IMG/VR virus record: IMGVR_UViG_3300028800_000064
Span: 33,241-97,240 of that record
DNA: 64,000 nt
Strand: one strand, 5' to 3'
From: a virus
Each line of letters begins with the position of its first letter. Within the stretch, counting starts at the first letter, position 1. Under the pieces are notes generated by a model that was not told the origin of the DNA, searched no databases, and worked only from the letters and a program-made list of their open reading frames with translations. Positions 2,639-50,796 of the stretch are shown piece after piece. The position numbers were made by a program, and so were the translations under genes.

Positions 2639-3763
2639 ATGAGCAGCATGAAACCGCATCTATACATCAACAGCAAGGGCTACTTTGTTACCCGCCACTC
2701 ATACAGCGGCAGCGATTCGTTTAACTACTGCGCGCGGAAATACTACCTAGAGCGCGTGCAGGGGTGGTCGGAGAAGGTGGTGCGGTCGGCCACATTCTTC
2801 GGCACCGCTTTGGAAAAAGCAGTGACGTTCTGGCACCAGCATCGGCAAGATACTGCCGCCGCTGTCGCGGAGTTCGTTCGCTTGTGGGCGGAACACAAAG
2901 ACAAACCATACACCTACTCCAAGACCGATCTCGACTGGGACCGGCTCAACCTGACAGGTCAGGAGCTGCTGCGGCTGTACACGATCCGCTATCCCACGTT
3001 CCCTTACGTGGTCAATAACCCGCTCGATTTTCAGGTGGAGACCAACTTCGAAGTGTTCCCCGGCACCAAGCTGGCAGGCATCGAATTCACTTCGTACATC
3101 GATCTTGTCGCCCAGATGAAAGACAAATTCGAACCGATCATCATCGATATGAAAACGTCGGGCAAGGATGTACCCGAGTTCACAGTGTTGGACCCGCAGT
3201 TGCGAAGTTACTCCTGGGTGAAGAGCTGGCCGAATGTGGCGTTCTTGTGGTTCCGGAAGATGGGTCGCACGATCTCCAAGGGGGATACTGTGACGTTCCT
3301 GGAGCCGTATGCCGATCTGCAGCCGGGCGATAACGCGATTGTTTTGGCGACAGATGATTTCGGCATCTGGGTCACGCAAAACCAACGAGTGGTGGATGAG
3401 ATCGATGCTCAGTTTAAGGGGGAAAGCAAAGCTGTGAAGGCGGCGCGGCAAGCGTACATCGAAGCCAACTCAAGTCACGCACCTGAGCGGGTCATCACCA
3501 AGCAGAGAGTGCAGTTCAAAATGGCGGTCATCACTCCCGAGAGCGCCGAAGATATAGGTCGGTCGATCAAGAGGGATATCGTCAACATCGTTGGGGCCAA
3601 CGAAAAGGAATTCTGGCCGATGCAATCGGGTGTTAGGTTCCCGAACGAAAAGTGCCCGAACTGCGCGATGCGCGGAATCTGTGCTGGCAAACCGGAGCTG
3701 CGGGACACGCTCCTAGTTCGAAAGCAACTGGATGAGTTTGACTTTGGCAAGGAAAGCGAGTAG
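2639..3763 (+). CDS. PD-(D/E)XK nuclease, AddB/Cas4-like, with 4-Cys cluster
   Basis: SYS..FNYCARKYYL, IDL..IIDMKT, QLRSY, C-terminal CPNC..C. Confidence 0.88.
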   Translation: MSSMKPHLYINSKGYFVTRHSYSGSDSFNYCARKYYLERVQGWSEKVVRSATFFGTALEKAVTFWHQHRQDTAAAVAEFVRLWAEHKDKPYTYSKTDLDWDRLNLTGQELLRLYTIRYPTFPYVVNNPLDFQVETNFEVFPGTKLAGIEFTSYIDLVAQMKDKFEPIIIDMKTSGKDVPEFTVLDPQLRSYSWVKSWPNVAFLWFRKMGRTISKGDTVTFLEPYADLQPGDNAIVLATDDFGIWVTQNQRVVDEIDAQFKGESKAVKAARQAYIEANSSHAPERVITKQRVQFKMAVITPESAEDIGRSIKRDIVNIVGANEKEFWPMQSGVRFPNEKCPNCAMRGICAGKPELRDTLLVRKQLDEFDFGKESE

Positions 3764-8582: not shown

Positions 8583-9011
8583 ATGGGACACAATGTCGGA
8601 GTAGCCGCAGATCGAGCGGTCAAGAACAGCGAGCGCGTCAAGCCAGTTTCCCAGCGCACACCAGAAGAACGGCTGGCGAACATTCGGAATTTGCTAGCGG
8701 CAGGCCTGGCGGTGCCGCCTGTCGAGCAAAAGTTTCTGTTGGCGCAATACGATAGTATTCAGGCAACGCTCGTGCAAAACACGAGAGTGCTTGAATTGGC
8801 CCGCGCGACGGTGGAACTTGCCCATGAGGAGATCGAGAGTCTCAAGGCCCAGATTGCGCAGTTTCGCACGGTGTATGAACAGGAAAACAGCAGCACCACG
8901 TTCAAACTGGAGCGAGTGCCGGTAAATGAACTCATTTTGGAGACCTCAGAGGGCCAGTTGATTCGGTTTGAGGGCGAGGGTGGCGCGGTTCCGGCGGAGC
9001 CGATTGCGTAA
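8583..9011 (+). CDS. Hypothetical coiled-coil protein
   Basis: AGGAGG RBS; coupled to next gene. Confidence 0.65.
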   Translation: MGHNVGVAADRAVKNSERVKPVSQRTPEERLANIRNLLAAGLAVPPVEQKFLLAQYDSIQATLVQNTRVLELARATVELAHEEIESLKAQIAQFRTVYEQENSSTTFKLERVPVNELILETSEGQLIRFEGEGGAVPAEPIA

Positions 9012-9439
9012 TGACGCGCTTCGAATCATTTTTGCGTCGGTACCTCCAGTTCAAAGAAATCGGCTGGACGGAGATCGGCGAGAAGTTCACACGGTATGCT
9101 TTGTGCCGCACGCCGTGGTTCAACATCTATCTGCACCAGCTCTACGCGCCGAACTGGCACCCAGAGTGCCACGATCACCCCTGGGGTTTCATTGCCATCT
9201 TGATTCGGCGCGGGTATTTGGAGCGGGTGGGAGACAAGAATTACCGCCGCAAGGTTGGGTCGGTTCTGTTTCGCCCGGCCACCTTCACGCACAATGTGAT
9301 TACGCCGTACGGCACCTCGTGGTCGATCATTTTCACGACACCGAAGAGCCGTGACTGGGGATTCAAGCCCTGCGACCACCATTTGTCGCCATTAAATCCA
9401 GACACGTATAGGGGAATATACACCCATGCTCCGAGATAA
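9011..9439 (+). CDS. Cupin-like protein
   Basis: IYLHQ..CHDHPW..GYLE..FRPATFTHNV. Confidence 0.75.
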   Translation: MTRFESFLRRYLQFKEIGWTEIGEKFTRYALCRTPWFNIYLHQLYAPNWHPECHDHPWGFIAILIRRGYLERVGDKNYRRKVGSVLFRPATFTHNVITPYGTSWSIIFTTPKSRDWGFKPCDHHLSPLNPDTYRGIYTHAPR

Positions 9440-9827
9440 AGACGGCAACAGGTTGTTTCGCAAGGTAACTGTACGGATCGTTTATCCGGATTCGATCTTT
9501 CCGACAAAGACGCTCATCCAGCACGCGGGCGCGCGGCAGGGTTTTGGTCCCGAAGGGGTCGATCAGATTTTGAATGGCATTGCGGACCAGCTTGAAACTT
9601 TGTATCCGTGGTGGGAGTTCCAGGTTGTTGAACTGACTCCCGAACACCGGACGGCGCGGTACGTGTTCACTTTCGCAGGTTACCGCGCAGGTTATGTGCC
9701 GCAAGATTTTGGAGCTGCGGTTGCTCCAGGAATTAACCCACAAAGCAGCAGTACGCTCGACCTTGGGACGGCGGAAAGTACCACACCGGCAGAGGAAATG
9801 ACCGAAGCCGGGAACACACTGTCGTAA
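9426..9827 (+). CDS. Hypothetical protein
   Basis: Continuous ORF within the operon. Confidence 0.55.
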   Translation: MLRDKDGNRLFRKVTVRIVYPDSIFPTKTLIQHAGARQGFGPEGVDQILNGIADQLETLYPWWEFQVVELTPEHRTARYVFTFAGYRAGYVPQDFGAAVAPGINPQSSSTLDLGTAESTTPAEEMTEAGNTLS

Positions 9828-10230
9828 CCGCTGTCCCGAGAGCGAGTGCCTGGAGGAAGAAATGGCCCACGCGATGTACGAGGTTTGGGAAGACCCGATA
9901 GGGGATGACGATAAATCCCCGTGGTGCGCGCAGATGGTGAACTATGCGCCTCGTTTTCCCACAAGGAAAGCTGCGGAAGACTACGCGGCGACGATCCGGA
10001 GGAATCGCGAGAAGGCCGGGCTCAAGTAAGTTTGAATGGCTCGCGCCAGCCGCAGACCAGAGGCCCGCACTTGCACGCAAGGCAGGTTGTCACGAACGGT
10101 TCCCAGCATAAAGTGAAACAACAGGTCCATTCCGCGCCGCAAACGCCGCAGACATGAGGCTGGCTCCACGATTCTTCAATCTTGTCCGATTTCTTAGGCG
10201 CGGCCATGTTGAGATAGTAGCAGAAAAGGC

Positions 10231-12284: not shown

Positions 12285-12878
12285 ATGACTCACGATCTTT
12301 TTTCGCCCGATCACTTCGCGCAGAAAACCTGGGAGCGCGTGCGTAACGCGAAGCCCGCAGATTTTGAACCGTGGGAAGAGGCGCGCGAACGCTACATCGC
12401 CGAGAAGGTGCAGCCGCTGCTTGCCATGTACAGGCAGGGTGACCATGATTGGTTCCGCGATTTCAATCGGCGGCGCGGGCAGTGCATGCATGCCAGCGAT
12501 TTGATCTTGCGATTGCAGAGGTTGAATCCCAACATCTCAGTGCAGTTTCAAATCAACTTCCCGGACGACTGGGGCTTGTATGCAGCTTCTCTTGGCCGCG
12601 TGCAGTTTCTCACCGGTTTCCCGAAAGGCTGGTTGACCGAATTCTCATACGCCATGGTGGATGAGCGCGATCTGCCCACCGAAGAACGCAGGGGGTGGCG
12701 CACGGTCCTCATCTACTGCTTGATGAAAGGTGCCATCACCTGGAAGCAGGTGGTTGCAGAGTTCGGCGAACCGAACGATGCGTGGAACGAGATGCGCTGG
12801 CAGGAAGTGACTGCTGACTTCCGGCACGGCGGAGATGAGATTGTGCAGCGGAATATTGCGAACGTAGTCCAGCTCTGA
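12285..12878 (+). CDS. Hypothetical protein
   Basis: GGAG RBS; 197-aa ORF. Confidence 0.7.
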   Translation: MTHDLFSPDHFAQKTWERVRNAKPADFEPWEEARERYIAEKVQPLLAMYRQGDHDWFRDFNRRRGQCMHASDLILRLQRLNPNISVQFQINFPDDWGLYAASLGRVQFLTGFPKGWLTEFSYAMVDERDLPTEERRGWRTVLIYCLMKGAITWKQVVAEFGEPNDAWNEMRWQEVTADFRHGGDEIVQRNIANVVQL

Positions 12879-32359: not shown

Positions 32360-33738
32360 ATCTGGACGCCCCAGAAGGCTCGTTGTTGAAATGGTACTTT
32401 CGGCAGCAGCTTCACGCATGACGAATCCGCTGAGATGGTGAACTGGCGTTCGGTTGGGAACTGCACCACGACCGTCAGGTGCTCGGTTAACACATTCATT
32501 TTGGTCACGGTGCCGCAGTATCCTGCCGCTGGCCCGGTTAGAATTTCCACGAAGTCTCCGCAGTGAACTATAGGCACGTTTGGCACATTGCCGGTCTTCA
32601 TCATTTTTTGGATATCCTCGTTGGGCACGGTTACCGCGCGCACGAATCCCCCTTCATCGTTGCACATCGCAGAGAGTTCCGAGATGCCGCGAACGCGGGT
32701 CAGCGCGCGAACCAGAGAGGGCGACGTGCAGCGGGCAAAGAAATAGCCAAACTGTAGTTCGCCTTCTGCGTTCACTGGCGCGAAGATTTGGGCGGCTTTT
32801 TTGCCGAAGAGTCTTTTGCCCTGGGTTTGAAGGATCGGGGTGAGCTGGTCCATGCGGTGCGCCGACGATATCTCCAGCATGCACCACGGCGTGTCCTTCA
32901 ACGTCTCGACCGGGCCGAAGGAGAGTAGCGGCGAAGTCTCTGCCGGGGGCGCGGCGAAGCGCAAGCTCTTAACGCGCCGGAGCCGAGAGACACAGCTCTT
33001 GCTGAGTCCTGCCTTTGTGAGAGACGCCTGATGGGTCAGGTTGCGCAGATAGGCACCCACGGCTACCACTCGAATATCCTTGTCCGCAAGTAGCGCGCTG
33101 ATGGTTGGGCGGAAGATTCGGCGGATCGCCGGAACGGGAGCCTTGACTTTCTTTGCGATGGCCGCGTAGCTTTGAGTCGAGGCGTAGAGCAAGATCATGT
33201 CGGTCAGGCTGCCGTACGGTGTTGTCTCTTTGCCAGATTTTACCAGCAAAGGCCGGATCACCGACGCATCAGGGTTGAGCCCTAGCAGTATGAAAGCACC
33301 CATGGTCTGTTCGATGATGCGCAGGGCTTGCCACGTTCGCGTTTGGATGAACCCGTGGGCTTTGCCGATGAAGGCTTGTGATTTGTGAAGCACGTAGTAC
33401 TCGACGCAAAGCTCTTGGAATTCGGGGCGCAGGGGCTCCAGCAGCTTGTGGAATTTTTCCGGAAAGTCTTTGGCGAACGCGGCGAAACTCAAGAACCCGC
33501 TATTTTCTGGCAGGGCTTCGGCACTGAGAAGCGCGTCCTCTTTGTCGTCTTCGTTTTTGCGCCGATTGAAATCTTCGAAGCTGGCGGCGTTGGCGACGTG
33601 ATCCATATAGCTGGAAACACCTTGCGTGTTGTCGCCGCGCATGCGCGCTTGGCCGCGCAACCACCGGCCACCGAAGTGTCCATAGCTGCGCCGACCGAGA
33701 CTACAAGGATTGCGCAAACCGCACGATTTGCTTTTCAT
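32356..33738 (-). CDS. Transcription regulator: sigma region-4-like HTH, second HTH, NusG NGN and KOW
   Basis: LRPEFQELCVEYYVLHKSQAFIG..IQTRTWQ; PWCML..IFAP..FGYFF..RGISEL..VPNEDI; GDFVEILTGPAAGYCGTV. Confidence 0.75.
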   Translation of the reverse strand: MKSKSCGLRNPCSLGRRSYGHFGGRWLRGQARMRGDNTQGVSSYMDHVANAASFEDFNRRKNEDDKEDALLSAEALPENSGFLSFAAFAKDFPEKFHKLLEPLRPEFQELCVEYYVLHKSQAFIGKAHGFIQTRTWQALRIIEQTMGAFILLGLNPDASVIRPLLVKSGKETTPYGSLTDMILLYASTQSYAAIAKKVKAPVPAIRRIFRPTISALLADKDIRVVAVGAYLRNLTHQASLTKAGLSKSCVSRLRRVKSLRFAAPPAETSPLLSFGPVETLKDTPWCMLEISSAHRMDQLTPILQTQGKRLFGKKAAQIFAPVNAEGELQFGYFFARCTSPSLVRALTRVRGISELSAMCNDEGGFVRAVTVPNEDIQKMMKTGNVPNVPIVHCGDFVEILTGPAAGYCGTVTKMNVLTEHLTVVVQFPTERQFTISADSSCVKLLPKVPFQQRAFWGVQI

Positions 33739-45916: not shown

Positions 45917-46517
45917 GCTTTGTCCGCATTGCCACGGCCCGCTCTGGGGAGAGTCCGAGCAGGAAATGAATTGTTGTTTGATGTGTCGCCGGGAGGCATT
46001 GCTTCTCGGCAGTTGGCCAAATCAACCAGGAGAGACGACGATGAAACTGACCGATGAGCAGATCGACCGCGTGTTTGTGTTATGTGCTGAGATCGCCGCT
46101 GTACGGAAGGAATTGCCTGCCGCACCAGTAGGATTCAACGTAGGAATCGAAATGGCGCGGCATCTCCGCGTGAGTCTGGCGCAGCACGGCGCAGCTTTGC
46201 AGGAATTGGGTGGTATTCTCGCTGTCCGAGACGACCAATGAGAGCAGCGCCAGCTCCTGCGGCCATAGTGTTCTGGATCATCGTGCTTGTGACCGCCGTG
46301 TTGTTGATCTGCGGGTGGAACTCTTAGTCGCGCTCCACCCGCCGGGTTGAGAAGTTTGGGCCTTCCAGCAGGCGATCAATGGCCTGTTCCGTCAGAAGGC
46401 GCAGGCGGAATTTTTGTGCGTGATCTTCCGACATGAACTTATAGCCCGCGATTTTCTGCAGGTCCTCAAACTCTTTGAGGGCCATGAAGCGGATGGGGCG
46501 ATCTGGGTTCCATTCCA

Positions 46518-47027
46518 TTATTCCATCCCCTCCAGTTTTTTGATGATCGTGAGCGCCTGGGCTTCTGAGAGGTTCCGCAGATGGATGGAGAATTTGGCAT
46601 CCTCTTTCAATTCCCAGTCATTCACACCAAAGCGGGTCTCTTTCAAATCTAGATCGGATGCAGCCAAGGACCGCTTGAGCAAATCGTGCAGCTCTGCGGC
46701 TTTGTCTCGGCGTTCTATCATGCGGTTGTCTTTTTGTTTTTCTTCCTGCTTCCATTGTTCGATGCGCTTCATGGCAATGGGGAGGAGATTTTGAATTGCA
46801 CCCTCGCGGCTCAGTGCCTTTTCGGCCCAGTCAGTATTGATGAAGTGGCGAGCTTCCCAGAACTGGGAAGTACCAACTCCTGCGACACTGCGAAGCAGAC
46901 CGCCGAAACCAGGATATCCATGAGGAAACATGGTGTCGGTGGTGACGACAAATCTCCACTGCGCATCAGGGCACTCTTTCTTTTCGATGGCGTAAGGTCG
47001 TTCGTATTTCACATCCAAAATTTTCAT
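46518..47027 (-). CDS. Hypothetical protein
   Basis: GGAGG RBS and own promoter TTGACA-N17-TATTCT. Confidence 0.65.
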   Translation of the reverse strand: MKILDVKYERPYAIEKKECPDAQWRFVVTTDTMFPHGYPGFGGLLRSVAGVGTSQFWEARHFINTDWAEKALSREGAIQNLLPIAMKRIEQWKQEEKQKDNRMIERRDKAAELHDLLKRSLAASDLDLKETRFGVNDWELKEDAKFSIHLRNLSEAQALTIIKKLEGME

Positions 47028-47118
47028 GGGGACATCCTCCATGGCCCGAGAATAGCAAAAGCTCTTCCCGTTGTCAACAGTACGAAAGTACTGCCCAGGT
47101 TTTGGTACTAAAAAGAGG

Positions 47119-47147
47119 TTGACATCGGCGATGGCGTGTGGTCTACT
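47119..47147 (+). promoter_or_regulatory. Promoter for the Tas-like locus
   Basis: TTGACA-N17-TCTACT. Confidence 0.6.
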
Positions 47148-47155
47148 CGCTCGTG

Positions 47156-47203
47156 GAGGATGACCACGAAAACGTTGCAAACCAAGCTCACAATGTCATT
47201 CTC
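47156..47203 (+). ncRNA. Single TIGR-like guide unit in the leader
   Basis: GAGGATGA-CCA-cgaaaacgt-TG-caaa-CCA-agctcacaa-TG-TCATTCTC. Confidence 0.8.
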
Positions 47204-47226
47204 ACACTTGAAACCCGGAGATCAAC

Positions 47227-48258
47227 ATGAACACGAAGATGATCGCGCTTCACAAGACCTTCGATAAAGATGCTGCAGGAAAACGCAACCTTGTAGTCCA
47301 CATTTCAGATGGTGTTAATCACGAGTTCCTCCCCCCAAAGAAATTTGAGAACTTTATTGCGAAGCTGCCTGCCACGACGCTGATTCGCGCGACCGCAGTA
47401 AACGCTACGGACGGAGTGCTACTAGACCTTGCGGAGCGCGGTAACAAAATTGTGTACGCCTACTGGCATACCACTGGACTCGAATCTGGCCTGGACCCGG
47501 CAGACCTTGTATCCCAGTACGCATTGCTGCCCGAGGAGATGTTTCGTACGTTCAAGCCCCGCGCGGATATCGCGAATTTGAAGCAGGTTCTGTCGCTGCG
47601 GAACGCTATCGTTCAGTTTGCTGGAGACGCCACACGGCGCTTGAAGCAATCGGGTCGCGACATCGGTGATCCTGAAATGGAGATCGCGGAAGATGCGATA
47701 ACATCTATCCGCAAGGGTATCGTGCTGGAAGATGGGACCCCGCTGGATAAGCACGTACAAAAGTTGGCGGAGCGGATTCCGGAGTGCCGGTTGTTCAAAC
47801 AAATTACACACATCCAGGACTCATGGATCATGGCAGCTTCGTTTGTGGCGTACTCAGGTGGCTTCGACCGCTTCGAGGACGTTGCTTCCCTGTGGCACTA
47901 TTTTGGGCAGCATGTAGGAGCCGATGGCCGCGCGCCGCGCCGTCGCAAGGGTACCAACATCGACTGGAATCCGCGCGGGCGCACCATTTTGTATCAGCTC
48001 GGCTCCACGATCATCAAGAATCGTAAGAACCCATGGCGCGACTTTTTCGATCAAGCTCGGGCCATCGAGATCGCCGCGCACGACGTGAAGCATCCGGGAT
48101 GCAAAACCAAAGACGGGCACTGCACCATGATGGCATCTCGAAAGATGGTCAAGGAAATCGTCAAGCGTTTCTTCCTGGCCGAAAAGGGAATTCAGTACCA
48201 AGAGGATCACAACCCACTAAGCCACCAGGACAGTGAACTCCAACTTGTCAATGCTTAG
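47227..48258 (+). CDS. Tas-like Nop-domain (IS110-related) RNA-guided protein
   Basis: DRFEDVASLWHYFG..PRRRKG..WNPRGRTILYQLG..H..A.RKMVK; flanked by guide-like units. Confidence 0.85.
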   Translation: MNTKMIALHKTFDKDAAGKRNLVVHISDGVNHEFLPPKKFENFIAKLPATTLIRATAVNATDGVLLDLAERGNKIVYAYWHTTGLESGLDPADLVSQYALLPEEMFRTFKPRADIANLKQVLSLRNAIVQFAGDATRRLKQSGRDIGDPEMEIAEDAITSIRKGIVLEDGTPLDKHVQKLAERIPECRLFKQITHIQDSWIMAASFVAYSGGFDRFEDVASLWHYFGQHVGADGRAPRRRKGTNIDWNPRGRTILYQLGSTIIKNRKNPWRDFFDQARAIEIAAHDVKHPGCKTKDGHCTMMASRKMVKEIVKRFFLAEKGIQYQEDHNPLSHQDSELQLVNA

Positions 48259-48636
48259 GGTTGTGCGTGGGTGGCCATTGTACGATTGAAAACCAGTGAT
48301 CCATTGCCACCCACAAAATTTTATGACGGCCACCAGCTACGTGAAAACCACAACCGCAATGCCGTCAATAGTTTCGGAGCCACGGTACCGATGAAAACCA
48401 GAGTGTTTTTGCTCCGAGAAATTTACACAACGGCCACTGGCGACATGAAAACCACGGAAAGCGTGCCGTTTGCGAGTTTGGAAGCCAAATGCTCCTTGAA
48501 AACCATGGCACCCATGCTTCCAAAAAATTCAAGAGTTTGGCGCGGCCAATGAAACTATGAAAACCATCGACGGGGTGCCGCGCCTTGCAATTTCGAGGCC
48601 ACTGACGGTTTGAAAACCAAGGTCGGAATGCTTCGA
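48217..48636 (+). repeat. TIGR-like stem-loop array 1 (8 units)
   Basis: Units start at about 48217, 48267, 48324, 48372, 48429, 48477, 48539, 48593; each stem-CCA-N9-TG-N4-CCA-N9-TG-stem. Confidence 0.92.
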
Positions 48637-48654
48637 TAAAAAGGAGAAACATCA

Positions 48655-49149
48655 ATGGCTACGCTGACAGAGGTGAAGCAGCAACGCAAGGCGTTCGACG
48701 GTCGAGACACCTACGAACGTTTTACAGCTTACTGCAAAAAGCAAGACCTGGAGCCGAACAAGAAAGCGTTGATGGCCTGGGATGAACACCACAACCACTT
48801 CGCAATTCGGGACAACTACGGCACTCAAAAAGATGTGTATGCGCTGGGACTCCTGACGCTATACGAACGGTTCCTTGTGAACAACTGTATGCGTATTCCG
48901 AATGGCGCGCCGGTGAAACTTCCTAACGGGGCCACGTATCAGCCGACAGTGACTGAGCATCGGCATGTCGGTGGGCGCGCAACCCAGTTGCGGGATATCA
49001 CCGCGCAGCAGCTAAACGTGATCCGCGACCAATTCCGCACCGAGCTGCGACAACTCCTACGCACCCAGAAGTTTTTCAATCTGTCCGCTGGGGATATTCG
49101 CGGGATCGTTGCCGATGTGCTGGAGGAAACGCTAGCGGAGAAAGAATAG
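48655..49149 (+). CDS. Hypothetical protein embedded in the array
   Basis: AAGGAG RBS; 164-aa ORF between the two array blocks. Confidence 0.75.
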   Translation: MATLTEVKQQRKAFDGRDTYERFTAYCKKQDLEPNKKALMAWDEHHNHFAIRDNYGTQKDVYALGLLTLYERFLVNNCMRIPNGAPVKLPNGATYQPTVTEHRHVGGRATQLRDITAQQLNVIRDQFRTELRQLLRTQKFFNLSAGDIRGIVADVLEETLAEKE

Positions 49150-49157
49150 CTGAGACT

Positions 49158-49451
49158 GGGAGCGGCCACGCACCGATTGAAAACCAAGATACACATGCCG
49201 CTCCTATAAAATTTTCGAGGCCATGGAACTCTTGAAAACCACGCGGTTCGTGCCTCGATTCGATTTTAGGTGCGTCCAACAGAACATTGAAACCCACTGT
49301 GAGCATGACGCACCTACTAGTTTTCGGGACCACCGATTGAATGAAGCCCATAAGTGCGTTGTCCCGAACCGGATTGAGACACTGTCACAGCGGTGTCTCT
49401 TACAACTTCAAGGCCATTGGCGCTGTGCAGCCCATAAAGCACATGCCTTGA
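49158..49451 (+). repeat. TIGR-like stem-loop array 2 (5 units plus one spacer-less hairpin)
   Basis: Units start at about 49158, 49215, 49267, 49323, 49408. Confidence 0.9.
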
Positions 49452-49521
49452 TTTTTCTACTTGACGGATGGCAGCTAATGTGATTTAATAAGGAGATTCA
49501 AAGGCACCACAAGGGGACACG

Positions 49522-50235
49522 ATGAGAATCCGAACTATGTTGCTTGGGCTGGCGTTGTGTTTGTTGGGCTCGGTTGGTGCAAAGGCCCAGGTTTCGAAGG
49601 GCTGGCTGGTTGAGTCGGTCAGTGTAGAGAATGATCGCGGGCTGGGGTACGCGCCTCTGCCTGTCATCGAATTCGGAACCACGGCAAATGTCCCGCTCGG
49701 CAAGCGATGGGTGCTGGATGTAGCTACGTCCTACGATATTGCGCATAAGATCGGCATTGCGAACGGCTACCAATTGAACGATGGAGGCGGGGCGAAGTTC
49801 TACATCACGCCGTGGTTTGGTGTGACCGGCAGCGCCACCTACTCCTTTCTGAAGAACAGCTCTTATCACAAGGGCGGATTCAATTTGAATCCCGGCGTTG
49901 AGTTTCGCACCTATCCGCTGGGCATCCCATCACATATCGACATCGCGGCCTTCATTCCCAACGGCACCATCGACCGGAAGACGGGGATCGAGTCTAATCG
50001 CATCTCGGGGTTCTCGGTCGCGTGGGATGCATACCTAGCCAGTGCTGGCCCGTTCGACATTCACATGACCACATATGGCGGCTATTACCACGGGTACAGC
50101 GAAGGCAATCCGCAATGCGATGGCACGGACCCAGGTCCTGTAACCTGTCCGCGTGCGTCGTGGGCCACCGGCAACATCGGTACGACTGTGTCGTTTTACT
50201 TTCCGCGCACCAAAGACCCAGACCACTACTGGTAG
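49522..50235 (+). CDS. Secreted, outer-membrane beta-barrel-like protein
   Basis: Signal peptide (..AKA/Q); alternating aromatic/Gly strands. Confidence 0.6.
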   Translation: MRIRTMLLGLALCLLGSVGAKAQVSKGWLVESVSVENDRGLGYAPLPVIEFGTTANVPLGKRWVLDVATSYDIAHKIGIANGYQLNDGGGAKFYITPWFGVTGSATYSFLKNSSYHKGGFNLNPGVEFRTYPLGIPSHIDIAAFIPNGTIDRKTGIESNRISGFSVAWDAYLASAGPFDIHMTTYGGYYHGYSEGNPQCDGTDPGPVTCPRASWATGNIGTTVSFYFPRTKDPDHYW

Positions 50236-50796
50236 GGAGAACACATGATCTCGGACGAGACCCGGCTAGAGATGGATCAGTTGCGGAGTGAGGCTCGGCG
50301 GTTGGCGTTGAAGAATGATGTGCTGCAGGATGATGGAGTGGCGCACGTACTCTATCATCTCGTGGACACGCTAGCGCGAGTGCTGAACAGGCTGGACGAA
50401 GAATCTCCGATGGAGAAGGTGGCGAATGAAACCGTCAACTAAAAAAGTGTTGGGCGAGATTGCGATGTGGGTAGTGCTTTTTGTTGCCATCGTCGCAGCG
50501 CAGCAGCTCGGATACCACGAGGGTTTCGCAGCGGCCATGAAGTACAACATCCGTCTTGCCGTGAGCCCGATGTGACCATGGAAGACTCATACGATCACGA
50601 AGTGACGATCCATCTAACGAAGGCCGGAAAACTGCCGCGTGAAATAGACTGCAGCGAGTGCGGCGGAAAGATGTATCGTTGGAAGACTCGGGCGATACCG
50701 ACGTATCGATGCCAGGATGCGGACTGCGGCGCACAGACCACGCTCGATCTCGCAGATTTGAAGCGGCAGCATTTATCCTGACCGTGAGGGAGACCG

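Follow-up and report, generated by a model that had tools for sequence, protein, structure and literature searches.

TIGR-Tas systems are portrayed in the literature as compact RNA-guided binders of DNA that consist of a single protein, and they are in development as tools for editing and repression. The described representatives closest to the locus considered here are PateTasR and CsTasR (Xu et al. 2026, bioRxiv 10.64898/2026.09.09.750476) and the TasR, TasH and TasA proteins (Faure et al. 2025, PMC12045711). As an additional protein gene, Faure et al. (PMC12045711) describe only a ParB-like one located beside some dual-repeat tasA genes, and a 2026 survey of 20,096 tas loci does not mention an accessory gene. 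The primary papers leave open the natural role of Tas proteins with a missing or dead nuclease, the processing of stem-loop guides, and the way in which spacers are gained.

The locus that we analysed resembles these systems in several respects. It encodes a Tas protein that has a Nop domain and the fold of TasR, it has dual 9-nt spacers and variable closing stems, its arrays are placed 5' of tas, 3' of tas and inside the end of the tas coding sequence, and it is phage-borne, with a nuclease that is probably inactive. Whereas the known TIGR-Tas systems were described as single-protein ones, in this locus a second conserved protein gene, called the partner below, is interleaved with the guide units. 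The locus is very probably a two-gene TIGR-Tas variant with an undescribed second protein; such a variant was not found in the searchable literature, nor was any published description of the protein family.

The window, i.e. the whole stretch of DNA analysed, comprises 64,000 nucleotides (positions 33,241 to 97,240 of the IMG/VR virus record IMGVR_UViG_3300028800_000064). Its source record of 97,240 bp is rated ~98% complete and represents a 97-kb phage genome. The stem-loop TIGR-Tas locus extends from 47156 to 49451 (Table 1). Guide units were detected by a scanner whose grammar consisted of a terminal stem (5 bp or longer), CA, the 9-nt spacer A, the loop TGNANNCCA, the 9-nt spacer B, T and the closing stem. 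This grammar was matched by 14 units within the locus, all on the + strand, with ~1 match expected per shuffled 64 kb; outside the array region of the window there was one match on the + strand (12507-12545) and two on the - strand. One unit is located in the tas leader, one at the tas 3' end, seven between tas and the 164-codon open reading frame (ORF), and five after this frame. The stems vary in sequence across the array, yet pairing is kept in every unit.

Table 1. Positions of the tas gene, the partner gene and the guide units in the window
Feature	Position	Strand	Description and basis
tas, 343 aa	47227..48258	+	TasR-type: RuvC-like N-domain, coiled coil, Nop domain
164-aa gene	48655..49149	+	founder of an unnamed Tas-linked, array-embedded family; invariant W42, D43, N47
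RBS AAGGAG of the 164-aa ORF	48641..48646	+	sequence reading
TIGR unit in tas leader	47156..47203	+	9-bp stem, loop TGCAAACCA; unit scanner and sequence
TIGR unit within tas 3' end	48217..48258	+	tas TAG stop inside closing stem; scanner and sequence
Seven stem-loop TIGR units, tas to ORF	48267..48636	+	stems of 6-9 bp, which differ; loop TGAAAACCA; scanner
Five stem-loop units 3' of ORF	49157..49451	+	last two with degenerate loops TGAAGCCCA, TGCAGCCCA; scanner and sequence

Two of the units are intimately connected with the tas message. The unit at 48217-48258 encodes the final Tas residues and the TAG stop, and that at 47156-47203 directly precedes the tas RBS. Due to this overlap of guide units with the end and the leader of tas, guide processing or Tas binding could affect the tas mRNA.

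No terminator-like site was found on the + strand between tas and position 50178, and a sigma-70-type scan of the region 46400-50400 revealed no + strand promoter-like site. Since neither kind of site was found, transcription of the guides and the 164-aa gene as one shared transcript, regarded as almost certain in the original prediction, is consistent with the sequence, which falls short of proof. An additional 7-bp hairpin (GAGACAC...GTGTCTC, 49376-49399) can be read amid the last two, degenerate units; it is not followed by a T-run and so is not a typical terminator. The product of the next gene on the + strand (49522-50235) is 237 aa long and its N-terminus resembles a signal peptide; a terminator-like hairpin (50178-50193) is situated near the end of this gene. 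The 237-aa protein matched no Pfam or PHROG family, and its gene is not kept beside the module in other loci. No RNA sequencing run was listed as containing the window stretch. A 262-nt contig identical to 48515-48776 occurs in one DNA run (a rhizosphere metagenome, small share) and is uninformative on expression or habitat. When the 14 spacer pairs of the window were compared with the 97-kb phage genome, matching was no better than for shuffled spacers, and the sole match with at most 2 mismatches falls within the array itself.

The product of the 343-aa gene is a genuine Tas protein. Its family profile matched, among PDB entries, TasR (9mty, E 2e-25) and TasH (21kl, E 5e-10). The AF2 model (pLDDT 89.8) was best aligned by Foldseek to TasR 9mty, over 340 columns, and next to the IS621 bridge recombinase; on the basis of these alignments we assigned the architecture of a RuvC-like domain, a coiled coil and a Nop domain. 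Thus, as judged from profile and model, the window Tas is a protein with a Nop-type guide-RNA-binding domain, as a Tas protein of a TIGR-Tas system has to be.

The state of the nuclease is a separate problem. In the family alignment an invariant H9 and the pair A55/T56 occupy the places where we infer that the catalytic D and E belong, and a conserved E/D13 is located near these RuvC acid positions. Alignment of the Tas N-domain sequence to the solved structure gave no result, so D11 of TasR has no residue-level counterpart in our comparison. The RuvC active site of the window Tas is probably inactive, with its catalytic positions placed by inference and not by residue-level superposition. Stem-loop TasR proteins were reported to be catalytically dead and to serve as RNA-guided repressors, and our reading of the window Tas fits these published proteins (bioRxiv 10.64898/2026.09.09.750476). 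The premise of a nuclease-dead Tas, from which the original prediction had argued for a partner protein, is plausible in view of the TasR fold and of H9 and A55/T56 at the expected acids, although the acid positions themselves are deduced.

The 164-aa ORF begins with ATG at 48655 and ends with TAG at 49147-49149, which gives 164 codons. All the local features originally ascribed to it were confirmed. The strong RBS, AAGGAG, lies 8 nt 5' of the ATG. The preceding unit ends at 48636, which leaves the predicted 18 nt, and it is the eighth unit if the one bearing the tas stop (48217-48258) is counted as the first. The next stem starts at 49157/49158, i.e. 7-8 nt past the stop codon, where 8 nt had been claimed. 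In all 10 related loci (see below) the ATG of the homologue is preceded by an AGGAG-type RBS. The ratio dN/dS among related loci is 0.14-0.19 for this gene and 0.10-0.21 for tas. The existence of homologues, together with these ratios, rules out a chance ORF, and by such comparison of sequences the frame is a genuine protein-coding gene under purifying selection.

The family to which the protein belongs has ~35 members, which are 150-190 aa long and basic (median pI 9.05). Six homologues are 56-65% identical to it and ~25 others are more distant; an exhaustive HMMER search added ~17 distant relatives (150-190 aa), and the fetched loci contributed ten. The family HMM recognises its members in the 10 related loci with E from 4e-51 to 9e-9. 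Homology is full-length in the alignment of 33 sequences (A4), in which W42, D43 and N47 are invariant and form a W-D-x3-N motif; G65, Y70, R72, F73, G92 and R103 are other conserved positions. The AF2 model (pLDDT 78, >88 for residues 20-70, pTM 0.43) consists of a five-helix domain at the N-terminus, in which the invariant patch is located, a beta segment that is poorly defined, and two long antiparallel C-terminal helices.

That no known family had been recognised in this protein at first reading was borne out by the searches, which gave no Pfam, PHROG, NCBIfam, PADLOC or PDB match. Scanning of 23, and then 33, members by hmmscan against Pfam, NCBIfam and PADLOC detected no family, including ParB, Cas1, Cas2, integrase and reverse transcriptase. 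None of the members matches the L7Ae alpha-beta-alpha sandwich (Pfam PF01248), and the model is mainly helical; the absence of L7Ae from the fold lists, like that of ParB, is inconclusive by itself. Fold searches of the partner (Foldseek against PDB and BFVD, VIA-align, ESM Atlas) returned nothing significant, a result which does not amount to demonstration of a new fold. A tblastn search of GenBank phages gave zero matches, and the partner alignments used as queries against viral, metagenome and genome collections retrieved no loci. A search for longer forms found no fused Tas-partner proteins, which is weak evidence.

We considered whether the partner might be the missing nuclease. This is unlikely: the invariant residues are limited to W, D and N, the model consists mostly of helices, and no nuclease motif is present.

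The structural comparisons bear also on another possibility, namely that the partner regulates its own module. As a small DNA-binding dimer it would set transcription of tas and the array, in the way that Aca proteins do in anti-CRISPR operons. A basic protein of ~160 aa with a terminal helical hairpin, of a type used for dimerisation, in its model would suit such a function. The best rows of the exhaustive VIA-align search, all of them non-significant, were helices from the C-termini of GntR- and MarR-type regulators (Z 4.4-4.9), matching the helical hairpin only. However, every fold match was below significance, a helix-turn-helix Pfam match occurs in 0 of the 33 members, and the gene is placed 3' of tas, inside the transcript and away from a promoter. 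We find this reading distinctly unlikely.

The family proved to be strongly linked to tas. Related loci were collected with the Tas-family alignment as the query, which yielded 15 metagenome and 4 IMG/VR loci; the same alignment found no loci among genome contigs. With a cut-off of >200 bits for the Tas clade, 11 of the fetched loci pass, and their Tas proteins are 31-47% identical to that of the window. In 10 of these 11 (Tas 34-47% identical) a family member is located immediately 3' of tas on the same strand, and guide units adjoin the member in all 10. The weak IS110-like matches among the fetched loci have neither units nor a partner gene. This count leaves out the long-contig family members P0009, P0011, P0022 and P0027.

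The eleventh clade locus, L019, belongs to a complete 103-kb soil phage and its Tas is 31-32% identical to the window Tas. A HMMER search with the family gave zero matches anywhere in this record. There is, nevertheless, a 182-aa ORF (P0069, L019:7166-7714), whose product, like the window partner, is small and basic and is encoded between TIGR units beside a Tas of the same clade; P0069 lies 5' of tas, whereas the window gene lies 3' of it. Compared with the enlarged family profile by hhalign, P0069 gave a probability of 75% and E 2.5e-5 over 114 columns, with WDx3N in register. It is probably a distant family member in a changed gene order.

Eight further pairs of partner and Tas were matched by an equal nucleotide count of their contigs and by the same source. 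These are P0002 with P0029 (28249 nt), P0003 with P0030 (3195 nt), P0006 with P0031 (5085 nt), P0016 with P0039 (18593 nt), P0018 with P0040 (5166 nt), P0054 with the Tas locus L018 (53236 nt), P0057 with the Tas locus L017 (55388 nt), and P0024 with P0037 (83704 nt, 8 contigs each), the partner being named first. They lend independent support to the linkage with tas. Co-occurrence of homologues with tas and arrays had been set as the test of the original prediction, and its outcome was clearly positive, in the 10 of 11 loci, in the probable eleventh and in these eight pairs. The two-gene variant proposed there gains support from this genomic association with tas and the units, and it is at the level of association that the proposal now stands.

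One might still argue that the partner is unrelated cargo, for example an anti-defence or host-takeover gene, which merely uses transcription of the array and contributes nothing to TIGR-Tas function. Small uncharacterised genes do accumulate in accessory regions of phages, and a possible tas-less copy was encountered. In this copy (P0005, from a 1308-nt Logan contig) the N-terminal 27 residues correspond to the initial 22 of Tas with 77% identity, so that an N-terminal segment of Tas is fused in frame to the partner from about residue 7. As read from this contig, P0005 may be either a natural deletion of tas and array 1 or an assembly chimera; were it real rather than chimeric, the partner would be able to persist without tas. 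Against the cargo reading, linkage is kept down to ~31-34% Tas identity, and it outlasts both the change of gene order in L019 and transfer between unrelated phage backbones, with all other neighbours differing. The module is hosted by phages of 53, 55 and 97 kb whose backbones are otherwise unrelated, and in an all-against-all comparison of genes only tas and the partner were common to the window neighbourhood and the other loci. Pairwise identities of Tas and of the partner are correlated with r 0.97, which indicates co-inheritance of the two proteins and not their interaction. In our opinion, it is very unlikely that the gene is mere cargo.

Placement of the guide units is conserved together with the genes. 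Units flank the partner gene on both sides in L002, L003, L007, L017 and L018, and in L008 the scanner found them on the 5' side only. The distance from the end of the upstream unit to the partner ATG is 18-34 nt in these six loci and the window, and wherever a unit was found downstream (L002, L003, L004, L007, L017, L018) its stem starts no more than 28 nt past the partner stop. In L004 the partner abuts tas, and units are found 5' of tas and 3' of the partner, one of them overlapping the partner stop codon. Stemless unit-like repeats with the loop TGAAACCCA are present on both sides of the partner in L005 (1000-1110 and 1585-1640) and L006 (820-940 and 2510-2660); those of L006 have a conserved edge repeat and are dual-repeat-like. 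To judge from the repeats, the L005 and L006 arrays look like intermediates between the stem-loop and dual-repeat architectures. The picture which emerges is that of a two-gene operon in which guide units are able to fill every intergenic space, and not of a gene fallen into an array. In L003 a Cys-rich gene with CxxC motifs, HNH-endonuclease-like by sequence reading, is located 3' of the module (2832-3225); it is absent from the window.

Such proximity to the guides could mean that the partner is a cofactor of tigRNA maturation or loading, which binds the stems or bases of the precursor and defines or protects guide ends or recruits a host RNase. The gene is 6-34 nt from units on both sides, its product is basic, and longer flanking sequence was reported to sharpen the ends of CsTasR tigRNAs (bioRxiv 10.64898/2026.09.09.750476); processing was better with a CsTasR flank of 2,215 nt. 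If true, this would answer the question of who processes stem-loop guides. On the other hand, the family lacks both an RNase-like motif and a conserved set of His, Lys and Tyr, its sole invariant residues being W, D and N. L004 has no unit between tas and the partner, and in other clades E. coli processing of stem-loop arrays takes place although the partner is absent (bioRxiv 10.64898/2026.09.09.750476). We regard a maturation cofactor as unlikely.

A different aspect of the module became apparent when near-identical loci were compared, namely L003:1730-2812 with L007:586-1802, and L017, L018 and L002 with one another around 8980-10180. Between L003 and L007 identity is 98.7% for tas, 100% for the partner gene, 97.7% for the unit scaffolds and 100% for the linkers, and it is 36% for the spacers, or ~28% without the single identical unit 3' of the partner. 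L007 has two additional units relative to L003. In the trio of L017, L018 and L002 the scaffolds are 94-96% identical, the tas and partner genes 85-88%, and the spacers 30-33%. Conservation of scaffolds with divergence of spacers implies, as far as aligned sequences can tell, that spacer pairs would be swapped in situ within fixed, individually recognisable stems. Divergence restricted to spacers bears on how TIGR arrays renew them, and it makes these loci a natural system for studying turnover.

It could be proposed that the partner serves this exchange as an adaptation factor, helping to replace the two 9-nt spacers within the fixed unit scaffolds. The near-identical loci (L003/L007 and L017/L018/L002) diverge almost solely in spacers, the partner is the sole other conserved protein of the module, and TIGR systems are not known to possess any adaptation machinery (PMC12045711; bioRxiv 10.64898/2026.09.09.750476). 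But the association is circumstantial, the protein has no integrase, nuclease, polymerase or reverse-transcriptase signature, and other TIGR clades possess diverse spacers without having the partner gene. We thus consider a spacer-exchange factor highly improbable.

Taken more broadly, the gene is best explained as encoding the second conserved protein of a mobile two-gene unit, which consists of tas and the partner with guide units before, between and after them, and it is likely that this TIGR-Tas clade has the partner as a dedicated component. The specific reading which we prefer, as a tentative one that falls a little short of being probable, is that of a non-enzymatic accessory subunit of a nuclease-dead TasR-tigRNA complex; the mechanism is deduced. 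According to this proposal, a single long precursor would contain both the guides and the partner message, whose translation would start from its own strong RBS. The product would be a small basic protein, probably dimeric and without an enzymatic signature, built of a five-helix N-terminal domain with the W-D-x3-N patch, a short beta segment in which an Arg is conserved, and an antiparallel helical hairpin at the C-terminus. Its binding partners may be the Tas dimer, the guide stems or target DNA, singly or in combination, and it could thereby help to assemble or stabilise a DNA-bound roadblock complex.

In other TIGR-Tas systems no such protein is needed for binding, for processing in E. coli or for repression (PMC12045711; bioRxiv 10.64898/2026.09.09.750476), hence the partner is no general requirement. 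This weighs against a strong claim, as do P0005 and the negative search for fused forms. The question of auxiliary factors in stem-loop systems was left open (bioRxiv 10.64898/2026.09.09.750476). That the partner is the missing stem-loop auxiliary factor, defining the tigRNA ends or helping to replace spacer pairs in situ within fixed scaffolds, seems to us rather doubtful; if true, it would provide the first protein handle on maturation or renewal of TIGR arrays. In any case, a protein which is inherited together with one Tas clade, and whose gene is interleaved with the guides, offers a concrete and cheaply testable candidate for the questions which the primary papers left open.

It remains to compare the two-gene module with the known arrangements in which a guide-binding protein has neighbours or partners. 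TasParB is ParB-like and is found beside the dual-repeat TasA, whereas 0 of the 33 members of the window family match ParB or any other Pfam family. The window partner has a mostly helical model without a known fold, and it accompanies a TasR-type Tas with stem-loop units. Another comparison is offered by the box C/D RNPs of archaea and eukaryotes, whose guide RNAs contain two guide segments and are processed from polycistronic or host-gene transcripts. In sequence and fold the partner does not resemble L7Ae or fibrillarin, and TIGR systems target DNA, whereas box C/D RNPs target RNA. Nevertheless, should the partner work with Tas, the two would be alike in composition, since the box C/D RNP also joins a Nop protein (Nop5/Nop56-58) with small partners, L7Ae/15.5K and fibrillarin (PMC12045711).
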